A DNA stretch of 64,000 nucleotides, taken from an uncultured Chloroflexia bacterium. Its GTDB lineage: Bacteria > Chloroflexota > Limnocylindria > Limnocylindrales > CSP1-4. The stretch spans positions 538,576 to 602,575 of the forward strand of contig CAVRZS010000004.1 in the NCBI GenBank assembly GCA_963725745.1. The letters are read 5' to 3'. Below, piece after piece: positions 1 through 12,254 of this stretch. The notes under the pieces were generated by a model. It did no database searches. It was not told the origin of the DNA and saw only the letters and a list, made by a program, of their open reading frames with translations. How positions within the stretch are numbered: position 1 is the first letter of the stretch; each line of letters starts with the position of its first letter. Both the position numbers and the translations under genes were made by a program.

Positions 1-2789
1 TCGGGCAGCATCGACGACCCAGAATCCGCCAGGATCGCGATCGCCTCGTCGATCGCGCGCAAGCCTTCCGCCGGTCGCCCGGCACCCGCGCAGGCGATCG
101 CCTGCACAAACAGCAGGAACGGCCAGAAGATCGGCGGCGACCGGAGCTCGCCGTAGAGGCCGATGCCGAACTGCACCTCGGCCATCCCTTCGTCCGCGCG
201 GCCGAGGGCGACGTGGGCTGCGCCGCGCAGGACGTTGCCGACCGCGGTCCAGATCCGGAACTCGTGCTCCTGGGCCAGGTCAACCAGGCTCGTCGCGAGC
301 TCGAGCGTGATCTCCGGCTCTCGTCGCCAGAACCGGAGCAGGCCGGCATGGAACCGGGCATAGGCGGTCGTGAACGGGTGGTCGAGCGCAGCGGCGAGGG
401 CGAGCGCGGCTTCGGCGCGTTCGGCAGCTCGGTCGGGTCTGCCCAGCAACCACAGGGTGAAGGCAGACGTGGTGAGGCAGGACACCCGCGGGTCGTTGCC
501 CACGCGGACCGACTGGGCTGTCGCGGGCCGCTCCGGAAACAGGGCGATCGCCTGCTCGAAGTGTTCGAGCCCGCCTCGCAGGTCGTCGAAGCTCATGAGG
601 GTCGTACCAACGAGCAGGTGGCCGTCGATCTGCATCGCGGCATCGCCCTCGGCCTCGCCCAAGTCGAGGATCACCCTGCCGAGCTCCGCGGACTTGTCGA
701 GCTGGGCGCGGAACAGGTAGAGGCTGGCCAGCCCACGCAGGACCGCGAACTGCTGCCGGACGTCGGCGCCCTGCTCGAACCGCTCGAGCGCGCCGGCAAA
801 GGCCGCCTCGACTTCCGGGGTGAACCCTTTCGTGGTCATCAGCGCCCTGGCCAGCGTGGTCCGGAGCCCGATCTCCTGGTTGATCCGTTCGGGCGACGGG
901 GGAACGGCTTCGACCACGGCCAGCATGTCCGACGCGAGCCTGACCGTATCGAGGTACCAGCCGTGGGCATCGTCGAGCGCGAGGAGGGTCTTCGCCAGCC
1001 CGTCCAGGCGCCCGAGGTCGCGCGCCTCCACCCAGTACGTCCAGGCGATGCGCAGGTTCCCGACGTCGGCGTGGAGCGCCTCCAGGGCAGCCTCACGCCC
1101 GGCGCCCGTCAGCTGGCCGCGCAGGCGACGCGCCAGGTCCGCGTAGTACGTGGCATGAACCTCGCGAGTCCGGGACGCGAGGTCGGGGTGCTGGTCGAGC
1201 CGGTCGGCGGCGAACTCGTGGATCGTCTGGAGCATCGCGACCCGCGGCTCCCGACCCGGCCGGTCCACCCGGCGCAGGAGGCTCTTCTCGACGAGACCGG
1301 CGAGCACGTCGAGCACGTCGACCGCCTCTCCATCGACCGCGCCGACCTCGCCGACCACGGCCTGGATCGCGTCCACCTCCGCGTCCGCGAACACCGCCAG
1401 CAGCTCGAACAAGCGCTGTTCAGCGGGCGAGAGCAGCTCGTAGCTCCAGTCCATCGCCGCCCGCAGCGTCTGCTGGCGCTCCGGGAGGTCGCGCGGTCCG
1501 CTGCGCAAGAGCCCCAGCCGGTCGTCGAGCCGATCGCGAAGCACCTCCGGCGAGAACAGACGGAGCCGGGCGGCCGCGAGCTCGATCGCCAGCGGCAGGC
1601 CATCGAGCCGGCGGCAGATCTCCGCGACCGCGGCCGCGTTGTGGTCGGTGAGCTCGAATTCCGGACGGACGACGCGGGCGCGGTCGACGAACAGCTGCAC
1701 TGCGGCAACGTCGCGGATGTCCGCGGCCGTTACCTGCCCGCGGGCGTCCGGCGGCAGCGCGAGCGGCGGCACGGGGAAGAGCTGTTCTGCCCGGACGTGG
1801 AGCGCCTCGCGACTCGTCGCGAGCACCGTCAGCCCGGGGCAGTCGCTGAGCAGCTGGGCCACCACGGCGGCCGATTGGGTGACCTGCTCGAGGTTGTCGA
1901 GCACGAGCAGCATGCGTTGTTCCCGCAGCCGGTCGACGAGCTCGTCCTGGAGCGGCCGATCGATGATCTCGCCCAGGCCAATCGATCGCGCGATCGCGAC
2001 CAGCACCGCGTTCGTGTCATGGGCGCTGGCCAGGTCCACGAACGAGGCGCCGTCGCGGAACCTCGGCGCCAGGTCCGATGCGACCCGGATCGCGAGTGTC
2101 GTCTTGCCGGTCCCGCCTGGCCCGATGAGCGTCAGCAGGCGGACGGAGCCATCCGCGAGGCGTTCGGTGATCTGGGCGATCTCGTTCTGACGACCGATCA
2201 GGGCCGCGACGCGCGAGGGCAGGTCTGCCCCGGGCTGACGAGCGGTGACCAGCGGCGGGAACTCCGACGGGAGGTCCGGGTGGACGAGCTGGTAGAGGTG
2301 CTCGGGCCGGCCGAGGTCCCGGAGGTGGTGCTCCCCCAGGTCGCGGAGCCCGGCCCCGCCCGGCAGCCGCTCGGTCGCCAGCGCACCCGCCGACGCGGAC
2401 AGCAGTACCTGGCCGCCGTGCCCCGCCGCCATGATGCGGGCGGCGCGGTTGACGGTGGTGCCGAAGTAGTCGCCGTCACGCCGCTCGGCCTGGCCGCAGT
2501 GAATGCCCATGCGGACCCTGAGCGGGCCGGTCTCGCCCCACGACTCGGCGATCAGCCCGCGCTGGGCCTCGAGGCTCGCCGTCGCCGCATCGATCGCCCC
2601 GGCGAACACGGCCATCATCCCGTCGCCGGTGGTCTTGACCACGGTGCCGCGGGCTGCCTCGATCGCGTCACGCAGGATCGCGTCGTGTCGGCCCAGCGCG
2701 GCCTTCATCGCGTCCGGGAACTGCTCCCAGAGCCGCGTGCTGCCCTCGAGGTCGGTGAACAGGAACGTGATGGTTCCAGTCGACGGCAT
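1..2789 (-). CDS. Class III adenylate/guanylate cyclase domain fused to an AAA/NB-ARC-type (STAND) ATPase; the C-terminal part runs off the left edge
   Basis: Absent from the ORF track because it has no stop inside the window. Reverse-strand translation from ATG 2789 (GTG 2795 also possible) reads MPSTGTITFLFTDLEGSTRLWEQFPDAMKAALGRHDAILRDAIEAARGTVVKTTGDGMMAVF...RVRMGIHCGQAERRDGDYFGTTVNRAARIMAAGHGGQVLLS (cyclase homology domain). It continues with LLTLIGPGGTGKTTLA (Walker A) and MLLVLDNLEQV (Walker B-like). All listed minus ORFs from 839 to 2479 are in another frame, consistent with this frame staying open to position 1. Confidence 0.85.
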   Translation of the reverse strand, partial: MPSTGTITFLFTDLEGSTRLWEQFPDAMKAALGRHDAILRDAIEAARGTVVKTTGDGMMAVFAGAIDAATASLEAQRGLIAESWGETGPLRVRMGIHCGQAERRDGDYFGTTVNRAARIMAAGHGGQVLLSASAGALATERLPGGAGLRDLGEHHLRDLGRPEHLYQLVHPDLPSEFPPLVTARQPGADLPSRVAALIGRQNEIAQITERLADGSVRLLTLIGPGGTGKTTLAIRVASDLAPRFRDGASFVDLASAHDTNAVLVAIARSIGLGEIIDRPLQDELVDRLREQRMLLVLDNLEQVTQSAAVVAQLLSDCPGLTVLATSREALHVRAEQLFPVPPLALPPDARGQVTAADIRDVAAVQLFVDRARVVRPEFELTDHNAAAVAEICRRLDGLPLAIELAAARLRLFSPEVLRDRLDDRLGLLRSGPRDLPERQQTLRAAMDWSYELLSPAEQRLFELLAVFADAEVDAIQAVVGEVGAVDGEAVDVLDVLAGLVEKSLLRRVDRPGREPRVAMLQTIHEFAADRLDQHPDLASRTREVHATYYADLARRLRGQLTGAGREAALEALHADVGNLRIAWTYWVEARDLGRLDGLAKTLLALDDAHGWYLDTVRLASDMLAVVEAVPPSPERINQEIGLRTTLARALMTTKGFTPEVEAAFAGALERFEQGADVRQQFAVLRGLASLYLFRAQLDKSAELGRVILDLGEAEGDAAMQIDGHLLVGTTLMSFDDLRGGLEHFEQAIALFPERPATAQSVRVGNDPRVSCLTTSAFTLWLLGRPDRAAERAEAALALAAALDHPFTTAYARFHAGLLRFWRREPEITLELATSLVDLAQEHEFRIWTAVGNVLRGAAHVALGRADEGMAEVQFGIGLYGELRSPPIFWPFLLFVQAIACAGAGRPAEGLRAIDEAIAILADSGSSMLP

Positions 2790-2876
2790 GTCCACGAGCC
2801 CATCATCGGGCTTTCGGGCCACGCGGGGTGTCACGGCGGCGACACAACGCTCGGGCCGGCGACCGTGTGTCGCCAG

Positions 2877-3284
2877 CTACGGGAGCACGATGAACCGACC
2901 GCCATCGAGGGGGCGCACGACCTCGAAGTGCCGACGATCGAGCGTGACGATTGTCTTCGTTCGATACCTGGCCGCGAGGACGACGATCGAGGCGTCGGCC
3001 ACGCCGATCGACTGGTCCCCATAGCGCTCCACCAGGCGGCGCGCGGAGTCCAGATCCGTCGCATCGAACGATGGCAGCTCCCACGCGCCGCCGGCCAGCT
3101 CGGTCAAAGCGGCCAACTCGGCGTCCATGCCGTGTCGCGATGCGGCGAGGTAGTCCGTCTCTGCGACGACGTACGGCGAGACCACCAGCGGCTCGGTGGA
3201 GCCCTCCAGCACCTCGGCGACGGCCGCGTGGTCCGGCTCTCCGCTGTCGAAGTAGGCGAGGAGGGCGCTCGTATCGACGATCAC
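2877..3284 (-). CDS. vapC: PIN-domain toxin (VapC family)
   Basis: GTG at 3284 gives VIVDTSALLAYFDSGEPDHAAVAEVLE...LVVSPYVVAETDYLAASRHG...VVLAARYRTKTIVTLDRRHF, which is the PIN acidic-residue pattern. The start overlaps the upstream antitoxin stop as GTGA (3281-3284). Confidence 0.85.
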   Translation of the reverse strand: MIVDTSALLAYFDSGEPDHAAVAEVLEGSTEPLVVSPYVVAETDYLAASRHGMDAELAALTELAGGAWELPSFDATDLDSARRLVERYGDQSIGVADASIVVLAARYRTKTIVTLDRRHFEVVRPLDGGRFIVLP

Positions 3285-3499
3285 CTGTCGCCGAACCCGC
3301 GCAGGTGTTTGTCCGCGTCCCGAGCGATCGGCGCCTTGCCCGCGTACAGCCCGCCCTTCGGGCGCGGCCGGGCGTCGCCCATGACCGCCTGGCGGATCGA
3401 CTCGCGGATGACCTCGGCCTCCGAGACGCCTCGCTGGAGGGCAGCACGGCGAAGCGCGGTCTTGAGTTCGAGGGGCAGATAGACCGTCGTCTTGTCCAT
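3281..3499 (-). CDS. vapB: Ribbon-helix-helix antitoxin (VapB/CopG type)
   Basis: 72-aa track ORF MDKTTVYLPLELKTALRRAALQRGVSEAEVIRESIRQAV shows a beta-strand/helix/helix RHH pattern. It lies directly upstream of, and is translationally coupled to, the PIN gene. Confidence 0.8.
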   Translation of the reverse strand: MDKTTVYLPLELKTALRRAALQRGVSEAEVIRESIRQAVMGDARPRPKGGLYAGKAPIARDADKHLRGFGDR

Positions 3500-3582
3500 G
3501 GATATATGGTACCACCGGTGGTACCAGCGACGACACGTTCACCGTCCCCGGCGGTCTGGCCTGCCCGACTACGATCGGAGCC

Positions 3583-4155
3583 GTGCTCATCCGCCACGAG
3601 ACCCTCCGCCGTATCGCGTCGGGCGAGGTCGACACCGTGTTCCGCCGCCAGCGCCGGCCAACCGTCAAGGCCGGCGGCACGCTGCGGACGATGATCGGGA
3701 TGCTCGCGATCGACACCGTCGAGCGCATCGAGCCCGGGGACGTCACCGAGTCCGACGCGCGGCGCGCGGGCATGGCCCGGGACGAGATCCTGGCGATGCT
3801 GGCCGCCAAGACCGAGGGCGAGTGCTACCGCGTCCGGCTCCACGTCGCGGGCGACGACCCACGGATCGCGCTCCGTGAGGACGCGGCGCTCGACGAGGCG
3901 ACGGTGACGGCGCTCCGCGCGCGGCTGGACCGGCTGGACGCCGCGAGCTCCTGGGGCCCATGGACGCGGCCGACGCTGCGGTTGATCGCCGAGCGGCCCT
4001 TCGTCCGCGCGCCAGACCTGGCCGCCTCGATGGGTCGCGACACCCCGTCGTTCAAGGATGACGTCCGCAAACTCAAGGCCCTGGGCCTGACGATCAGCCA
4101 CAACCCGGGCTACGAGCTATCTCCACGCGGCCGGGCGCTTCTCGACCGGCTCTGA
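3583..4155 (+). CDS. ASCH (PUA-like) domain protein with a C-terminal winged-helix-like tail
   Basis: 190-aa track ORF (GTG start). The N-terminus LIRHETLRRIASGEVDTVFRRQRRPTVKAGGTL...YRVRLH resembles ASCH beta-barrel proteins. The C-terminus RPFVRAPDLAASMGRDTPSFKDDVRKLKALGLTISHNPGYELSPRGRALL resembles a wHTH. Confidence 0.6.
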   Translation: MLIRHETLRRIASGEVDTVFRRQRRPTVKAGGTLRTMIGMLAIDTVERIEPGDVTESDARRAGMARDEILAMLAAKTEGECYRVRLHVAGDDPRIALREDAALDEATVTALRARLDRLDAASSWGPWTRPTLRLIAERPFVRAPDLAASMGRDTPSFKDDVRKLKALGLTISHNPGYELSPRGRALLDRL

Positions 4156-4305
4156 CCCACGGGCGGAGTGGTCTGGGGTCGCTGCGCATCCGCCGAGACG
4201 AACTCCTACGCGATGGTGTTCCGTCGCGGTCGGTCGATCTCGCCTCACGAAGGGGGGTACGAAGCGACTACCACGGCGGGCTCCGAGCCTTGCTACGTTG
4301 CGGAC

Positions 4306-5121
4306 ATGGGCGAACCGTGGAGGGTCAAGTACGACGGAGTCTGTGCCCGACGCGAGACCCCGCCGCATAAAGGCAGTCCGGCGGTCTGGGATCGTGCCAC
4401 TCGCTCAATCCGATGCGTCACGTGCCCTCTTGAGGCATCGCCTCCGCCGCCCGCGGCGGTGATCGAAACTGGCACGGCTGGTCGCTCGGCCCGCGTTAGG
4501 TACGACCACCCCGCGGCGAAGCGTGACACCGCAAACGCCGACCGATGGGGAACGGGCATCGTCGCGAAGGTGATCCGCGCGGTGTCCGACGAGCCGCAGT
4601 CGACGCGTGCATGGGCGATCGGCGCGGCGGGCGAAGAGAAGCTGGCGGCCGACCTCGATGACGTCCCCGGCATCCGCATGCTTCACGATCGGCGTATCCC
4701 CGGGACTCGCCGTAACATCGACCACATCGTCATCGGCCCGGCCGGCATCTTCGTCGTTGATGCGAAGAACCACAAAGGGCGCCTCGAGATCCGCGATCGA
4801 GGCGGACTGCTCCGCTCTGACCTGCGCCTCACCGTGGGTGGCCGCGACATCTCGAGTGCTGCGGACGGTGTGTTGTCGCAAGCCGACGTCGTGGCGACCG
4901 TGCTCGAGCGGGCAGGTATCGAGTTAGCACCTTCGGTGACGCCCGTCTTGTGCTTCCTCAGGGTCGAGTGGCCGCTGCTCCGGCCGCCGTCGGTGTTCCG
5001 TGGCGTCAGGCTCGAGAACGACCGATCGGTCAGGCGACTTGTGACCACGCGCTCGACACTTGCCGAGGCGCAGGCCGACCATTTGCTATCGACGCTTGCG
5101 GCGGGTCTTCCTCCGAGATAG
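4306..5121 (+). CDS. NERD (nuclease-related domain) protein with a small Cys-containing N-terminal knuckle
   Basis: In-frame ATG 4306 within track ORF 4168..5121. The segment AWAIGAAGEEKLAADLDDVPGIRMLHDRRIPGTRRNIDHIVIGPAGIFVVDAKNHKGRLEI matches the NERD core as I recall it (HDR...NIDH...V.DAK). The N-terminus carries C...CVTC. Confidence 0.75.
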   Translation: MGEPWRVKYDGVCARRETPPHKGSPAVWDRATRSIRCVTCPLEASPPPPAAVIETGTAGRSARVRYDHPAAKRDTANADRWGTGIVAKVIRAVSDEPQSTRAWAIGAAGEEKLAADLDDVPGIRMLHDRRIPGTRRNIDHIVIGPAGIFVVDAKNHKGRLEIRDRGGLLRSDLRLTVGGRDISSAADGVLSQADVVATVLERAGIELAPSVTPVLCFLRVEWPLLRPPSVFRGVRLENDRSVRRLVTTRSTLAEAQADHLLSTLAAGLPPR

Positions 5122-5178
5122 GTCCCAGCTGGGGTTCATACGTCGCCCGCCAGGAGGCAGCCCCGAGGGCGGCGTACG

Positions 5179-6543
5179 ATGCGCCTGGCTACATCATCGG
5201 GAGCTACGACTCGCGGCATGCGCCTCTTCGAGCTCTATCGCTATGCGAAGCCGAGTCCGGGGCCGGAGATCGAGTTCATCGATGGCTACCGGAATATCTT
5301 CAACGTCACGCGTTGGCCCAATTGGCCTGCCCTCGCGGGTGCTGGGCGCGTGCAGCTCGACCACGGCATCGACTCCGTCAAGAAGGTCATGGCGGTCGAC
5401 GGCGAGCGACGTCCCGCGATCCTGATCGCCTCGAAGCCACATCGGGCCGGTTCTGACTGGACGCCCTGGCATGACGAGCTCGACGCCGAGCGCGGGCACG
5501 TGCGCTATTTCGGAGACAACAAGGCCGACCTCGGGTTCGATCCGCTCGGACCACCCGGCAACCGCTCGGTCGTCGAGCAGTTTGGCCTCCATACATCGGC
5601 GAGTCGATCAGACCGACTCCGCGCGGCGCCGCTTCTGTTTTTCGAGAGCCTGGTGCATGAGGGACGAGCGAAAGGATTCTGGCGATTTCTCGGGGTGGGG
5701 CTCATCGAGCGTGCGGAGCTGGTCGCTCAGGTTGACCGAAAGGGACGGCCGTTCGTCAACTACGCCTTCGACTGCCTCTTGGTCGATCTGACCGCGGAGG
5801 GCCTCGGAATGGCATGGGAGTGGATCGCCGCCAGGCGCGACCCCACGAAGTCCGCTGACGAGTGCCTGCAGTTCGCGCCGGTGGCGTGGCGGCGCTGGGT
5901 CGACGGCGGCGCGGCCGTGAGAGACCGGATCCGCCAGCAATTGACCCGGGCGTCGACACTCACTCCAGCCGATCAACGCCCAGATGCTGGAACCCCGGCC
6001 GAAGACGCTCTTCGACATGTGATCGCGCACTACAAGCGACTGGGTGCATATCAGGGTGTCGGCGAACATCGCTTCGAGGGACTTGCGTCCGAGATCACGG
6101 GAAGCGTGTTGGGTGAAAGCGGCCAGTACCGGCCGGGTTGGATCACGAAGCGAGCCGGCGATGGCGGGATCGACTTCGTGAGTCGGCTGGATCTCGGGTC
6201 AGGTGTGGGAGCCCTGAAGCTGGTCGTCCTCGGCCAGGCGAAGTGCATTGCCGGGGTCGCGCCAGTGACGAGCGGACTCGATCTCGCGAGAACTGTTGCC
6301 AGGCTGGACCGCGGATGGGTCGGGTCGTTCGTGACGACGGGCTACTACAGCGAGCAGGCCCAACGCGAAGTCGTCAGCGACCGATTCCCGTTGCTCATGC
6401 TGAATGGTCGACATGTCGGCGAGACCGTGGTCCGAGAGTCAGCCTTGCGAGGCATGACCGTGCCCGAATACATTGCTGGGGTCGACGCTGAATACGACGC
6501 ACGGGTGTCCAACAGGCTGCCCGCGGAAATTCTTGGGGACTGA
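5179..6543 (+). CDS. Two-domain nuclease: N-terminal PUA/SRA-like reader domain plus C-terminal Mrr-type PD-(D/E)xK restriction endonuclease core; candidate type IV (modification-dependent) enzyme
   Basis: Track ORF of 454 aa (an alternative ATG at 5218 gives MRLFELYRY). The C-terminus HRFEGLASEITGSVLG...GWITKRAGDGGIDFVSRLDLGSGVGALKLVVLGQAKC fits the Mrr catalytic pattern (FE...DGGID...Q.K). The N-terminus PAILIASKPHRAGSDWTPWHDELDAERGHVRYFGDNK...APLLFFES...GFWRFLGVGLIERAELV resembles the SRA/YDG pattern (ivvS..Y.D..d.g..l.YtG.G). Confidence 0.6.
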   Translation: MRLATSSGATTRGMRLFELYRYAKPSPGPEIEFIDGYRNIFNVTRWPNWPALAGAGRVQLDHGIDSVKKVMAVDGERRPAILIASKPHRAGSDWTPWHDELDAERGHVRYFGDNKADLGFDPLGPPGNRSVVEQFGLHTSASRSDRLRAAPLLFFESLVHEGRAKGFWRFLGVGLIERAELVAQVDRKGRPFVNYAFDCLLVDLTAEGLGMAWEWIAARRDPTKSADECLQFAPVAWRRWVDGGAAVRDRIRQQLTRASTLTPADQRPDAGTPAEDALRHVIAHYKRLGAYQGVGEHRFEGLASEITGSVLGESGQYRPGWITKRAGDGGIDFVSRLDLGSGVGALKLVVLGQAKCIAGVAPVTSGLDLARTVARLDRGWVGSFVTTGYYSEQAQREVVSDRFPLLMLNGRHVGETVVRESALRGMTVPEYIAGVDAEYDARVSNRLPAEILGD

Positions 6544-6572
6544 CGCCGAGGCGTGTAACGGGACGCACCGGC

Positions 6573-8282
<1,710 letters not shown>

Positions 8283-10165: not shown

Positions 10166-10753
10166 ATGACGCCCGCCACTGCCCAGCGACTCACCGCCGA
10201 CGAGCGCCGCGACGCCGTGATCGCCGCCGCCACCGTCGAGTTCGCCCGGGGCGGCTACGCAGGGACCTCGACGCAGGCGATCGCCCGGCGAGTCGGCGTC
10301 TCGCAGCCGTACCTGTTCCAGCTGTACGCGACGAAGGAGGACCTGTTCCTCGCCACGATCCGGGCGTGCTTCGAGGCGACGCGCTCGGCGTTCCAGGAAA
10401 GTGGGGGAGCGGCACGCGACGCCGGCGCCGACTCTAGGGGGATCCTCGCGGCGATGGCCCACACCTACATGGCCCTGCTCGCGGATCGCGACCGGCTGCG
10501 GCTCCAGCTCCAGTCCTACGCGGCCTGCGGCGACCCGGCGATCCAGGCCGTCGTCCACGAGGAGTGGACACGCCTGTACCAGACGGTTTCGTCGATCTCG
10601 GGTGCCGACGAGGTGCGGATCCACCAATGGTTCGCCGAAGGGATGCTGCTCAACGTGGCGGCCTCGATCGGCAACCTGGATGAGGCCATCCGGCTCAAGC
10701 TCGCCCTGTTCGCAGAGGACGACATCGAGGGAGGTGACGCCCACCCGCGATGA
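10166..10753 (+). CDS. TetR/AcrR family transcriptional regulator
   Basis: ATG 10166 gives MTPATAQRLTADERRDAVIAAATVEFARGGYAGTSTQAIARRVGVSQPYLFQLYATKEDLF, a typical TetR N-terminal HTH. Confidence 0.85.
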   Translation: MTPATAQRLTADERRDAVIAAATVEFARGGYAGTSTQAIARRVGVSQPYLFQLYATKEDLFLATIRACFEATRSAFQESGGAARDAGADSRGILAAMAHTYMALLADRDRLRLQLQSYAACGDPAIQAVVHEEWTRLYQTVSSISGADEVRIHQWFAEGMLLNVAASIGNLDEAIRLKLALFAEDDIEGGDAHPR

Positions 10754-10778
10754 CCCGGACTTGTTTTTGCGCTGCGAA

Positions 10779-10798
10779 CTTAGCGACTAGTCACTAAG
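10779..10798. promoter_or_regulatory. Candidate TetR operator, a 20-bp near-perfect palindrome upstream of the MFS gene
   Basis: cttagcgactagtcactaag matches its own reverse complement at 18 of 20 positions. It ends 19 nt before ATG 10818. Confidence 0.45.
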
Positions 10799-10817
10799 GA
10801 AGGGAAGAACCCCAGCC

Positions 10818-12254
10818 ATGCCCCGACTCCGTTCTTCGACCGGATGGACGTTCGCGATCAGCGCGATCGGCCTGTTCATGGTCGCCCTCGACAACCTCGT
10901 CGTTACCACCGCGCTGCCCGTGATCCGCAACGATTTGGGCGCCTCGCTCCAGCAGCTCGAATGGATGGTCAACGCCTACACGCTGACGTTCGCGGTGCTG
11001 CTGCTCACCGGCGCCGCGCTCGGGGACCGGTTCGGCCGTCGCCGGATGTTCGTCATCGGGCTCATCGTCTTCACCGCCGGCTCGCTCGGGGCCGCCCTGG
11101 CGCCCAACAGCGACGTGCTTATCCTCGCCCGCGCCATCCAGGGCGTCGGCGGCGCGATCGTCACGCCGCTCAGCCTGACGATCCTGTCCGCCGCCGTGCC
11201 CCCGGAGCGACGCGCCCTCGCGCTCGGCGCGTGGGGTGGGATCGCCGGGCTCGCGATCGCGATCGGCCCGCTCGTGGGCGGCGCCATCGCGCAGGGGCTG
11301 AGCTGGCACTGGATATTCCTGCTCAACGTCCCGGTCGGCATCATCGCCACCGTCTTCGCCTACCTGTGGCTCGACGAGACCTACGGGCCCGAGGGCGGGC
11401 TCGACATCCCGGGTCTCGGCCTCGCGAGTGCGGGCCTGCTGGGCGTGGTGTGGGGCGTGATCAACGGCAACGAGCGTGGCTGGACTGACCCCGCGATCCT
11501 CGCGGCCATCGGCGCCGGCGCCCTGCTCCTGGGCGGCTTCGTGGCCTGGGAGGCGCGCGCCAAGAACCCGATGCTGCCGATGGACATGTTCCGCAGCCGC
11601 GCGTTCGCGGCCGCCAACACCTCGTCGCTGCTGATGTACTTCGGGATGTTCGGCTCGATCTTCCTGCTGTCGCAGTTCTTCCAGGTCGTCCAGGGCTACA
11701 ACCCGTTCGAGTCGGGTCTCCGCGTGCTGCCGTGGACCGCGATGCCGGCCGTAGTGGCGCCGCTCGCGGGCTACTTCAGCGGCCGCATCGGCGCCCGCCC
11801 GATCCTGGTCGTGGGGCTCGCCCTGATGTCGGTCGGGCTCGGCTGGATCGCCGCCATCGCCACGCCGACCGCCCCGTACATCGCGTTCGTGCCCCCGTTC
11901 ATCGTGAGCGGCATCGGCATGGGCATGTTCTTCGCGCCGATCGCGAACCTCGTCCTGTCCGCCGTGCGGCCGGAGGAGGAGGGCAAGGCGTCGGGCGCGA
12001 GCAACGCGATCCGTGAGGTCGGCGGCGTCTTCGGGGTCGCCGTGCTCGCTTCGGTGTTCTCGGCCAACGGCTCCTATGCCAGCCCGCAGGCGTTCGTCGA
12101 CGGGATGGTCCCGGCCGTCTGGCTGGGGGCTGCGGTCGTCGGTGTGGCGGCGGTCGTGGCCCTGGCCATCCCGCGCTGGGTGGCGGCCGGTCAGCCGCGC
12201 ATCGCCGACGCCGCGGCGGCCACGGGACGGCTCGCCGGCAGCGAGGCCGGCTGA
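10818..12254 (+). CDS. MFS drug/H+ antiporter, DHA2 (EmrB/QacA-like, 14-TMS type)
   Basis: 478-aa track ORF. GLFMVALDNLVVTTALPVIRNDLGASLQQLEWMVNAYTLTFAVLLLTGAALGDRFGRRRMF contains the MFS motif A-like GDRFGRRR. The protein is hydrophobic throughout. Confidence 0.9.
   Translation: MPRLRSSTGWTFAISAIGLFMVALDNLVVTTALPVIRNDLGASLQQLEWMVNAYTLTFAVLLLTGAALGDRFGRRRMFVIGLIVFTAGSLGAALAPNSDVLILARAIQGVGGAIVTPLSLTILSAAVPPERRALALGAWGGIAGLAIAIGPLVGGAIAQGLSWHWIFLLNVPVGIIATVFAYLWLDETYGPEGGLDIPGLGLASAGLLGVVWGVINGNERGWTDPAILAAIGAGALLLGGFVAWEARAKNPMLPMDMFRSRAFAAANTSSLLMYFGMFGSIFLLSQFFQVVQGYNPFESGLRVLPWTAMPAVVAPLAGYFSGRIGARPILVVGLALMSVGLGWIAAIATPTAPYIAFVPPFIVSGIGMGMFFAPIANLVLSAVRPEEEGKASGASNAIREVGGVFGVAVLASVFSANGSYASPQAFVDGMVPAVWLGAAVVGVAAVVALAIPRWVAAGQPRIADAAAATGRLAGSEAG

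Follow-up and report, generated by a model that had tools for sequence, protein, structure and literature searches.

The window analysed here is a stretch of 64,000 nucleotides from the metagenome-assembled genome (MAG) of an uncultured bacterium of the Chloroflexota (order Limnocylindrales). The gene under study occupies positions 5179-6543 of the forward strand, where a single open frame of 454 codons runs without interruption, and the opposite strand is rich in stops over this interval. The GC content across the region of this gene is 64-66%, in comparison with approximately 70% in the flanks. The features of the locus and of the predicted enzyme are given below, with the residues numbered, here and throughout the text, according to the 454-amino acid form (the open reading frame from 5179).

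3-2834, minus strand: STAND-type adenylate/guanylate cyclase-NB-ARC(AAA)-TPR protein
about 2877-3401, minus strand: PIN (VapC-like) gene
3583-4155, plus strand: orf3583, 190 aa, no Pfam match
4168-5121, plus strand: NERD-domain protein (PF08378, E 5.7e-14), part of the context, no conserved partner
5218..6543, plus strand: probable coding region for the enzyme of the MspJI family, 441 codons followed by a stop (an ATG at 5179 begins the longest open reading frame, of 454 aa)
5218..5931, plus strand: N-terminal SRA-like 5mC-recognition domain, residues ~14-251 (PF18062, alignment with the MspJI N-domain, Foldseek)
5467..5523, plus strand: predicted flipped-base pocket, W97, D99, Y110, F111, D113, and K115
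5671..5673, plus strand: K165 of loop 7-8, likely determinant of the downstream base
5932..5958, plus strand: inter-domain linker, residues ~252-260 (alignment with the MspJI linker, dip in pLDDT)
5959..6540, plus strand: C-terminal Mrr-like PD-(D/E)XK nuclease domain, residues ~261-454 (marginal PF04471, alignment with the MspJI C-domain, fold match)
6172..6243, plus strand: predicted catalytic motif D332-X20-Q353-A354-K355
6573-8282, minus strand: glnS, convergent with the enzyme gene

The true start of the gene is probably the ATG at 5218, which would yield a protein of 441 amino acids, given that most of the 634 homologues found have this same length (covering 97% of the 454-aa query), and that the first Met aligns with M14 in all four of the intact orthologues from the same genus, which are found in the genomes denoted here as G010, G020, G023, and G006. 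In G006, a stop codon is also present just upstream of the Met equivalent to M14. This TAA might suggest a pseudogene, a reading that was rejected, since the stop precedes the true initiation codon and all 441 codons of the gene are intact. A GGGAG motif is found 14 nt upstream of the ATG at 5218, and a GAGGG motif upstream of that at 5179. Two of the homologues, P0022 (731 aa) and P0096 (530 aa), have N-terminal extensions that are rich in Arg, Pro, and Gly and of low complexity; these proteins were rejected as domain fusions, as the extensions resemble the over-extended gene calls that are typical of high-GC DNA.

Kinship of the enzyme with MspJI

A phmmer search of the PDB sequences returned MspJI (4F0P, 4F0Q, and 4R28) as the best match, with an E-value of 1.6e-78, and the alignment pairs residues 20-452 of the query with residues 29-454 of MspJI, with an identity of 40.8% over 419 aligned pairs. 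The second match in this search was AspBHI (4OC8, E 1.2e-13), while the N-domain of LpnPI reached only E 0.76. The PADLOC model PDLC03206 (mREase_II, described as a "Type II methyl-directed restriction enzyme") covers residues 14-452 of the 454, with an E-value of 4.2e-128. In Pfam, the model RE_AspBHI_N (PF18062) matches residues 63-244 above its cut-off (E 3e-20), and Mrr_cat (PF04471) falls on the C-terminal domain with 19.7 bits against a cut-off of 21 bits (E 1e-3). These were the only two models returned by the Pfam scan at E-values of up to 1, in which neither the Mrr_N winged helix nor an HNH nuclease domain was found, and the NCBIfam search of the protein gave no match. Judged by these sequence scores, the similarity to both the reader and the nuclease domains is far beyond chance. 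Membership of the MspJI family is defined by significant similarity over the whole length of the protein, rather than in the nuclease domain alone (Zheng et al. 2010), and the similarity found here, both to 4F0P by phmmer and to PDLC03206, extends over the whole length.

The same relationship emerged from the structural comparison, in which a monomer model was built with AlphaFold2 from 37 homologues (mean pLDDT 74.8) and searched against the PDB with Foldseek. The chains of MspJI were the best solved structures (E 1.6e-39, TM 0.68-0.70), followed by AspBHI (E 4.7e-18) and the N-terminal recognition domain of LpnPI (E 4.9e-7), with weaker matches to the SRA-containing ScoMcrA and TagI. Confidence in the model is low in the pocket loop 87-97, and the pLDDT falls to 59 in residues 251-260. 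This interval aligns with the inter-domain linker of MspJI, which is formed by residues 260-268 (PMC3479186).

An earlier note on this DNA had proposed a candidate type IV restriction enzyme with an SRA-like reader of 5-methylcytosine in place of the Mrr_N domain, together with an Mrr-type core in the C-terminal portion. The peptides that it quoted (HRFEGLASEITGSVLG, KRAGDGGIDFVSRL, LVVLGQAKC, AILIASKPH, GSDWTPWHDELDAERGHVRYFGDNK, PLLFFES, GFWRFLGVGLIERAELV, AWEWIAARRDP, and RHVIAHYKRLG) are all present in the translation. Homology with MspJI bears out a modification-dependent (type IV or type IIM) restriction enzyme, PF18062 and the Foldseek matches to MspJI, AspBHI, and LpnPI agree with an SRA-like reader that lacks Mrr_N, and the C-terminal domain does carry an Mrr-like D...QxK nuclease, the D332-X20-Q353-A354-K355 motif of which aligns with the catalytic positions of MspJI. 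The same note described the architecture as unusual and the protein as functionally analogous to MspJI, with a different nuclease module, and on these points it was mistaken, since the two modules, their order, and the catalytic and pocket residues are the same as those of MspJI, which has been termed "Mrr-like" since its first description and combines an N-domain of the SRA-like type with a DX20QAK nuclease (PMC2938202, PMC3479186). The structural comparison thus upholds the SRA-like N-domain and replaces the mere analogue with a full-length homologue. Far from being a new architecture, an SRA-like reader joined to an Mrr-like nuclease is how enzymes of the MspJI family are normally built. 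The linker of roughly 90 residues that had been proposed (~211-300) is, in reality, a linker of some nine residues flanked by the C-terminal helices of the reader on one side and the N-terminal helices of the nuclease on the other.

The roles of individual residues were taken from the papers on the MspJI-DNA co-crystal and on mutagenesis (PMC4231741, PMC3479186, PMC2938202) and mapped onto the enzyme through the MspJI alignment. The roles of the pocket residues and of K173 are those described in the co-crystal paper (PMC4231741), and the correspondences are as follows:

MspJI Trp101 (stacking latch): W97
MspJI Asp103 (hydrogen bonds to N3/N4): D99
MspJI Tyr114 (stacking): Y110
MspJI Phe115 (main-chain contact): F111
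MspJI Asp117 (contact with the 5-methyl group): D113
MspJI Lys119 (pocket): K115
MspJI Lys173 (loop 7-8, purine reader, essential): K165
MspJI Asp334-X20-Gln355-Ala356-Lys357 (catalysis): D332-X20-Q353-A354-K355, with exact spacing

The pocket residues, K165, and the catalytic motif are invariant in all 37 homologues (65-90% identity), except for position 111, which is either F or Y. In MspJI itself, the substitutions D334A and Q355A abolish activity (PMC2938202).

MspJI, from Mycobacterium sp. JLS, is also the closest of the known systems in its size (456 aa, in comparison with 441/454) and in the order of its two domains, and the two enzymes have in common the residues of the 5mC pocket (W, D, Y, F, D, K), the Lys of loop 7-8 that reads the purine, and the DX20QAK motif. 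On the other hand, 59% of the aligned residues differ between the two enzymes, the host of MspJI is an actinobacterium rather than a member of the Chloroflexota, and MspJI has an inactive neighbour, M.MspJI (PMC2938202), whereas no methyltransferase gene is adjacent to the enzyme of the window. AspBHI, LpnPI, and other shorter enzymes of the family (4OC8, 4RZL) combine the same SRA-like N-domain (RE_AspBHI_N) with an Mrr-like nuclease and are 5mC-dependent, tetrameric, and cut N12/N16 downstream, but they are much more distant and lack insertions that are present in both MspJI and the enzyme described here. The E. coli Mrr belongs to the same superfamily as the C-terminal D...(Q/E)xK nuclease (PMC2938202), but its reader is Mrr_N, which was undetected in this enzyme, whose own reader is SRA-like. 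The base-flipping SRA/PUA-like fold is also shared by TagI, ScoMcrA/ScoA3IV (SRA-HNH), and the SRA domains of the eukaryotic UHRF1 and SUVH5, in which the nuclease is either of the HNH type or absent, rather than PD-(D/E)XK, and the sequence similarity is not significant.

Given the homology over the whole length and the predicted fold, the gene very probably encodes an intact, stand-alone modification-dependent restriction endonuclease (type IIM / type IV) of the MspJI family.

Proposed mode of action and the recognition loops

By homology with MspJI, the SRA-like domain would flip a 5mC or a 5hmC into the acidic, aromatic pocket formed by W97, D99, Y110, and D113, where W97 and Y110 would stack the base, D99 would form hydrogen bonds with N3 and N4, and D113 would touch the 5-methyl group. 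The loops 2-B, B-3, and 7-8 (the latter through K165) may read a short flanking sequence, and the C-terminal Mrr-like domain, with D332, Q353, K355, and Mg2+, would then cleave the DNA on both strands, 3' of the modified base and at a constant distance from it (N12/N16 in MspJI). For this cleavage, two nuclease domains would be brought together, probably within a homotetramer of back-to-back dimers like those of MspJI and AspBHI. The enzyme would act in defence against phages or plasmids with 5mC or 5hmC in their DNA, and the host may tolerate it because the host apparently makes no 5mC.

The loops that surround the pocket differ from those of MspJI. Four residues are missing from loop 7-8 and five are added in loop 2-B; W92 of MspJI is replaced by H88, with an invariant W94 close by that is missing from MspJI, and S90, at a main-chain contact, is replaced by K86. 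In addition, Q33 of MspJI, which is dispensable according to the mutagenesis literature on this enzyme, corresponds to K24, and E65 corresponds to D61. Loops 7-8 and 2-B vary across the family and probably set the specificity for the flanking sequence (PMC3479186), as can be seen in the different contexts recognised by MspJI (mCNNR) and AspBHI (YSmCNS), and MspJI loses its activity when deletions are engineered into loop 7-8 (PMC4231741).

Since the identity to MspJI is 41%, and the loops and the positions H88 and K86 have changed, the enzyme could differ from MspJI in the sequence context that it recognises, and perhaps also in the modification that it prefers. A member of the MspJI family whose specificity is substantially altered, i.e., for a new flanking motif or for another modification of the cytosine, through clade-specific recognition loops, is a serious possibility, albeit one to which we give somewhat less than an even chance. 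The shorter loop 7-8, the longer loop 2-B, the change from W92 to H88, and the invariant W94 are all consistent with it. However, the residues that contact the base and the 5-methyl group (W97, D99, Y110, and D113), together with K165, are identical to those of MspJI, so the modified base is very likely still 5mC or 5hmC, which leaves the context alone in play. This reading refines the assignment to the MspJI family and does not compete with it. More specifically, it is tentatively suggested from the alignments that the Limnocylindrales clade, defined by the invariant H88 and W94 and the altered loops 7-8 and 2-B, may recognise 5mC/5hmC in a context outside those of the characterised members.

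Since 2010, members of the MspJI family have been crystallised, subjected to mutagenesis, and marketed as commercial products. As an uncharacterised orthologue within this well-studied family, the enzyme carries little weight for basic biology. It adds to the family, nevertheless, a high-GC Chloroflexota clade, with hundreds of metagenomic homologues and distinct recognition loops, and if the 5mC context proves to be different, this would represent a new specificity, useful for reagents for the mapping of methylomes and epigenomes.

Distribution, neighbourhood, and competing explanations

The family is represented by a single copy in the genome from which the window comes (3.5 Mb, seven contigs). 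The gene is present in six of the 25 genomes of the same genus and in none of the 16 genomes of another family of the same order. Pairwise dN/dS values among the gene of the window and its intact orthologues in G010, G020, G023, and G006 range from 0.03 to 0.09, with dS near saturation and the ratios correspondingly rough, and clearly point to strong purifying selection on the enzyme gene. The genomic contexts differ among these genomes. In G010, for example, the locus contains, besides a NERD homologue, three other features (L013:3454-4443, 7124-7888, 10288-12018): a gene for an HNH_2 endonuclease, a truncated N-terminal fragment of a UvrD helicase that abuts the start of the orthologue, and a DDE transposase approximately 1 kb downstream. 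This part of the genome appears to be variable or mobile. Patchy presence and differing contexts would be expected of a defence gene that acts alone and moves horizontally, which agrees with the remark of the authors of the MspJI study that homologues with no methyltransferase are often located in transposase islands (PMC2938202).

Approximately half of the members of the MspJI subfamily have an adjacent methyltransferase (PMC2938202). Here, none was found among the genes that flank the enzyme gene, nor was any C5-cytosine methyltransferase (PF00145) found in the assembly of the host, which is estimated to be ~75% complete, so that one could be missed. An adjacent partner methyltransferase was rejected on these grounds. 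The genome does encode several N6/N4 methyltransferases (PF01555), located outside the window (e.g., G000:C4:853142-853864 and C5:252210-253070), and these fit with self-tolerance, because MspJI does not act on DNA with m6A or N4mC. The enzyme also suggests that the host makes no 5mC itself and that phages or plasmids modified with 5mC/5hmC may be a selective pressure in its habitat.

The gene immediately upstream raises a further possibility, in which the enzyme and the NERD protein (4168-5121, plus strand) would work together as a two-gene system, an arrangement that we consider very unlikely. The genes for the two proteins are direct neighbours with the same orientation, and in the gap of 57-96 nt between them no promoter-like or terminator-like site is predicted; the scan of the whole interval 3400-6700 returned nothing, and its sigma-70 consensus is probably unsuited to Chloroflexota of 70% GC. 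Genes of the NERD type also lie within a few kilobases of the orthologue in G010, where a homologue 63% identical to that of the window is found 4.4 kb upstream of the MspJI-like gene, and in G023, where a NERD-AAA-UvrD_C fusion is encoded on the other strand, 0.5 kb downstream of the gene. Neither of these positions reproduces the arrangement of the window, however, and in G020, G006, and G015, a further genome of the genus, no NERD gene is adjacent; downstream of the MspJI-like gene in G006 there is a UvrD-PDDEXK helicase-nuclease. Both MspJI and AspBHI, moreover, act alone in vitro (PMC2938202, PMC3946040), and no PADLOC model matches the NERD protein. A conserved two-gene system was rejected because the neighbourhood is not conserved, and the presence of NERD genes near MspJI-like genes may reflect simple clustering in defence islands. 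The PIN gene and orf3583 also gave no match in PADLOC.

The site next to glnS is shared with G015, the closest of the syntenic relatives, in which the flanks are syntenic with those of the window (glnS, ogt, dsbA, tetR, MFS, and orf3583, with amino-acid identities of ~80-95%), the NERD gene is missing, and approximately 4.2 kb of other DNA is found in its place; orf3583 is 95% identical between the two genomes. The enzyme gene of G015 (L016:7709-9050; G015:C6 ~96.7-98.0 kb) occupies the same glnS-adjacent site, syntenic with positions 5210-6541 of the window, with a DNA identity of 78%, in comparison with 89-92% in the flanks, 26 gap positions, and a reading frame that is split over several frames. 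This copy looks like a decaying pseudogene, although glnS is also frame-broken there, so assembly indels are possible. A broken copy at the same locus, and the lack of the gene from most of the genus, would be consistent with a relic in the window as well, that is, a DNA-binding protein with no nuclease activity, or a gene in the process of being lost. On the other hand, the copy in the window is intact, its dN/dS relative to the four other intact orthologues is low, and the catalytic and pocket residues are conserved across the 37 homologues, with F/Y at 111 as the only variation, all of which makes such a relic very unlikely.

Finally, a new reader-nuclease fusion that has converged on an MspJI-like function with a different (Mrr) nuclease module, which might be read into the touch of Mrr_cat on the C-terminal domain (E 1e-3) and an N-domain other than Mrr_N, is scarcely credible, and is refuted by the end-to-end alignment with 4F0P, the nuclease domain included, and by the Mrr-like DX20QAK nuclease of MspJI, the motif and spacing of which are identical here.

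At the opposite side of the neighbourhood from glnS, the cyclase domain of the STAND protein (3-2834) has weak matches to the PycC models of Pycsar in PADLOC, with E-values of 8e-6 to 5e-4. In G020, a STAND cyclase 44% identical to this protein is located directly upstream of the MspJI-like gene.
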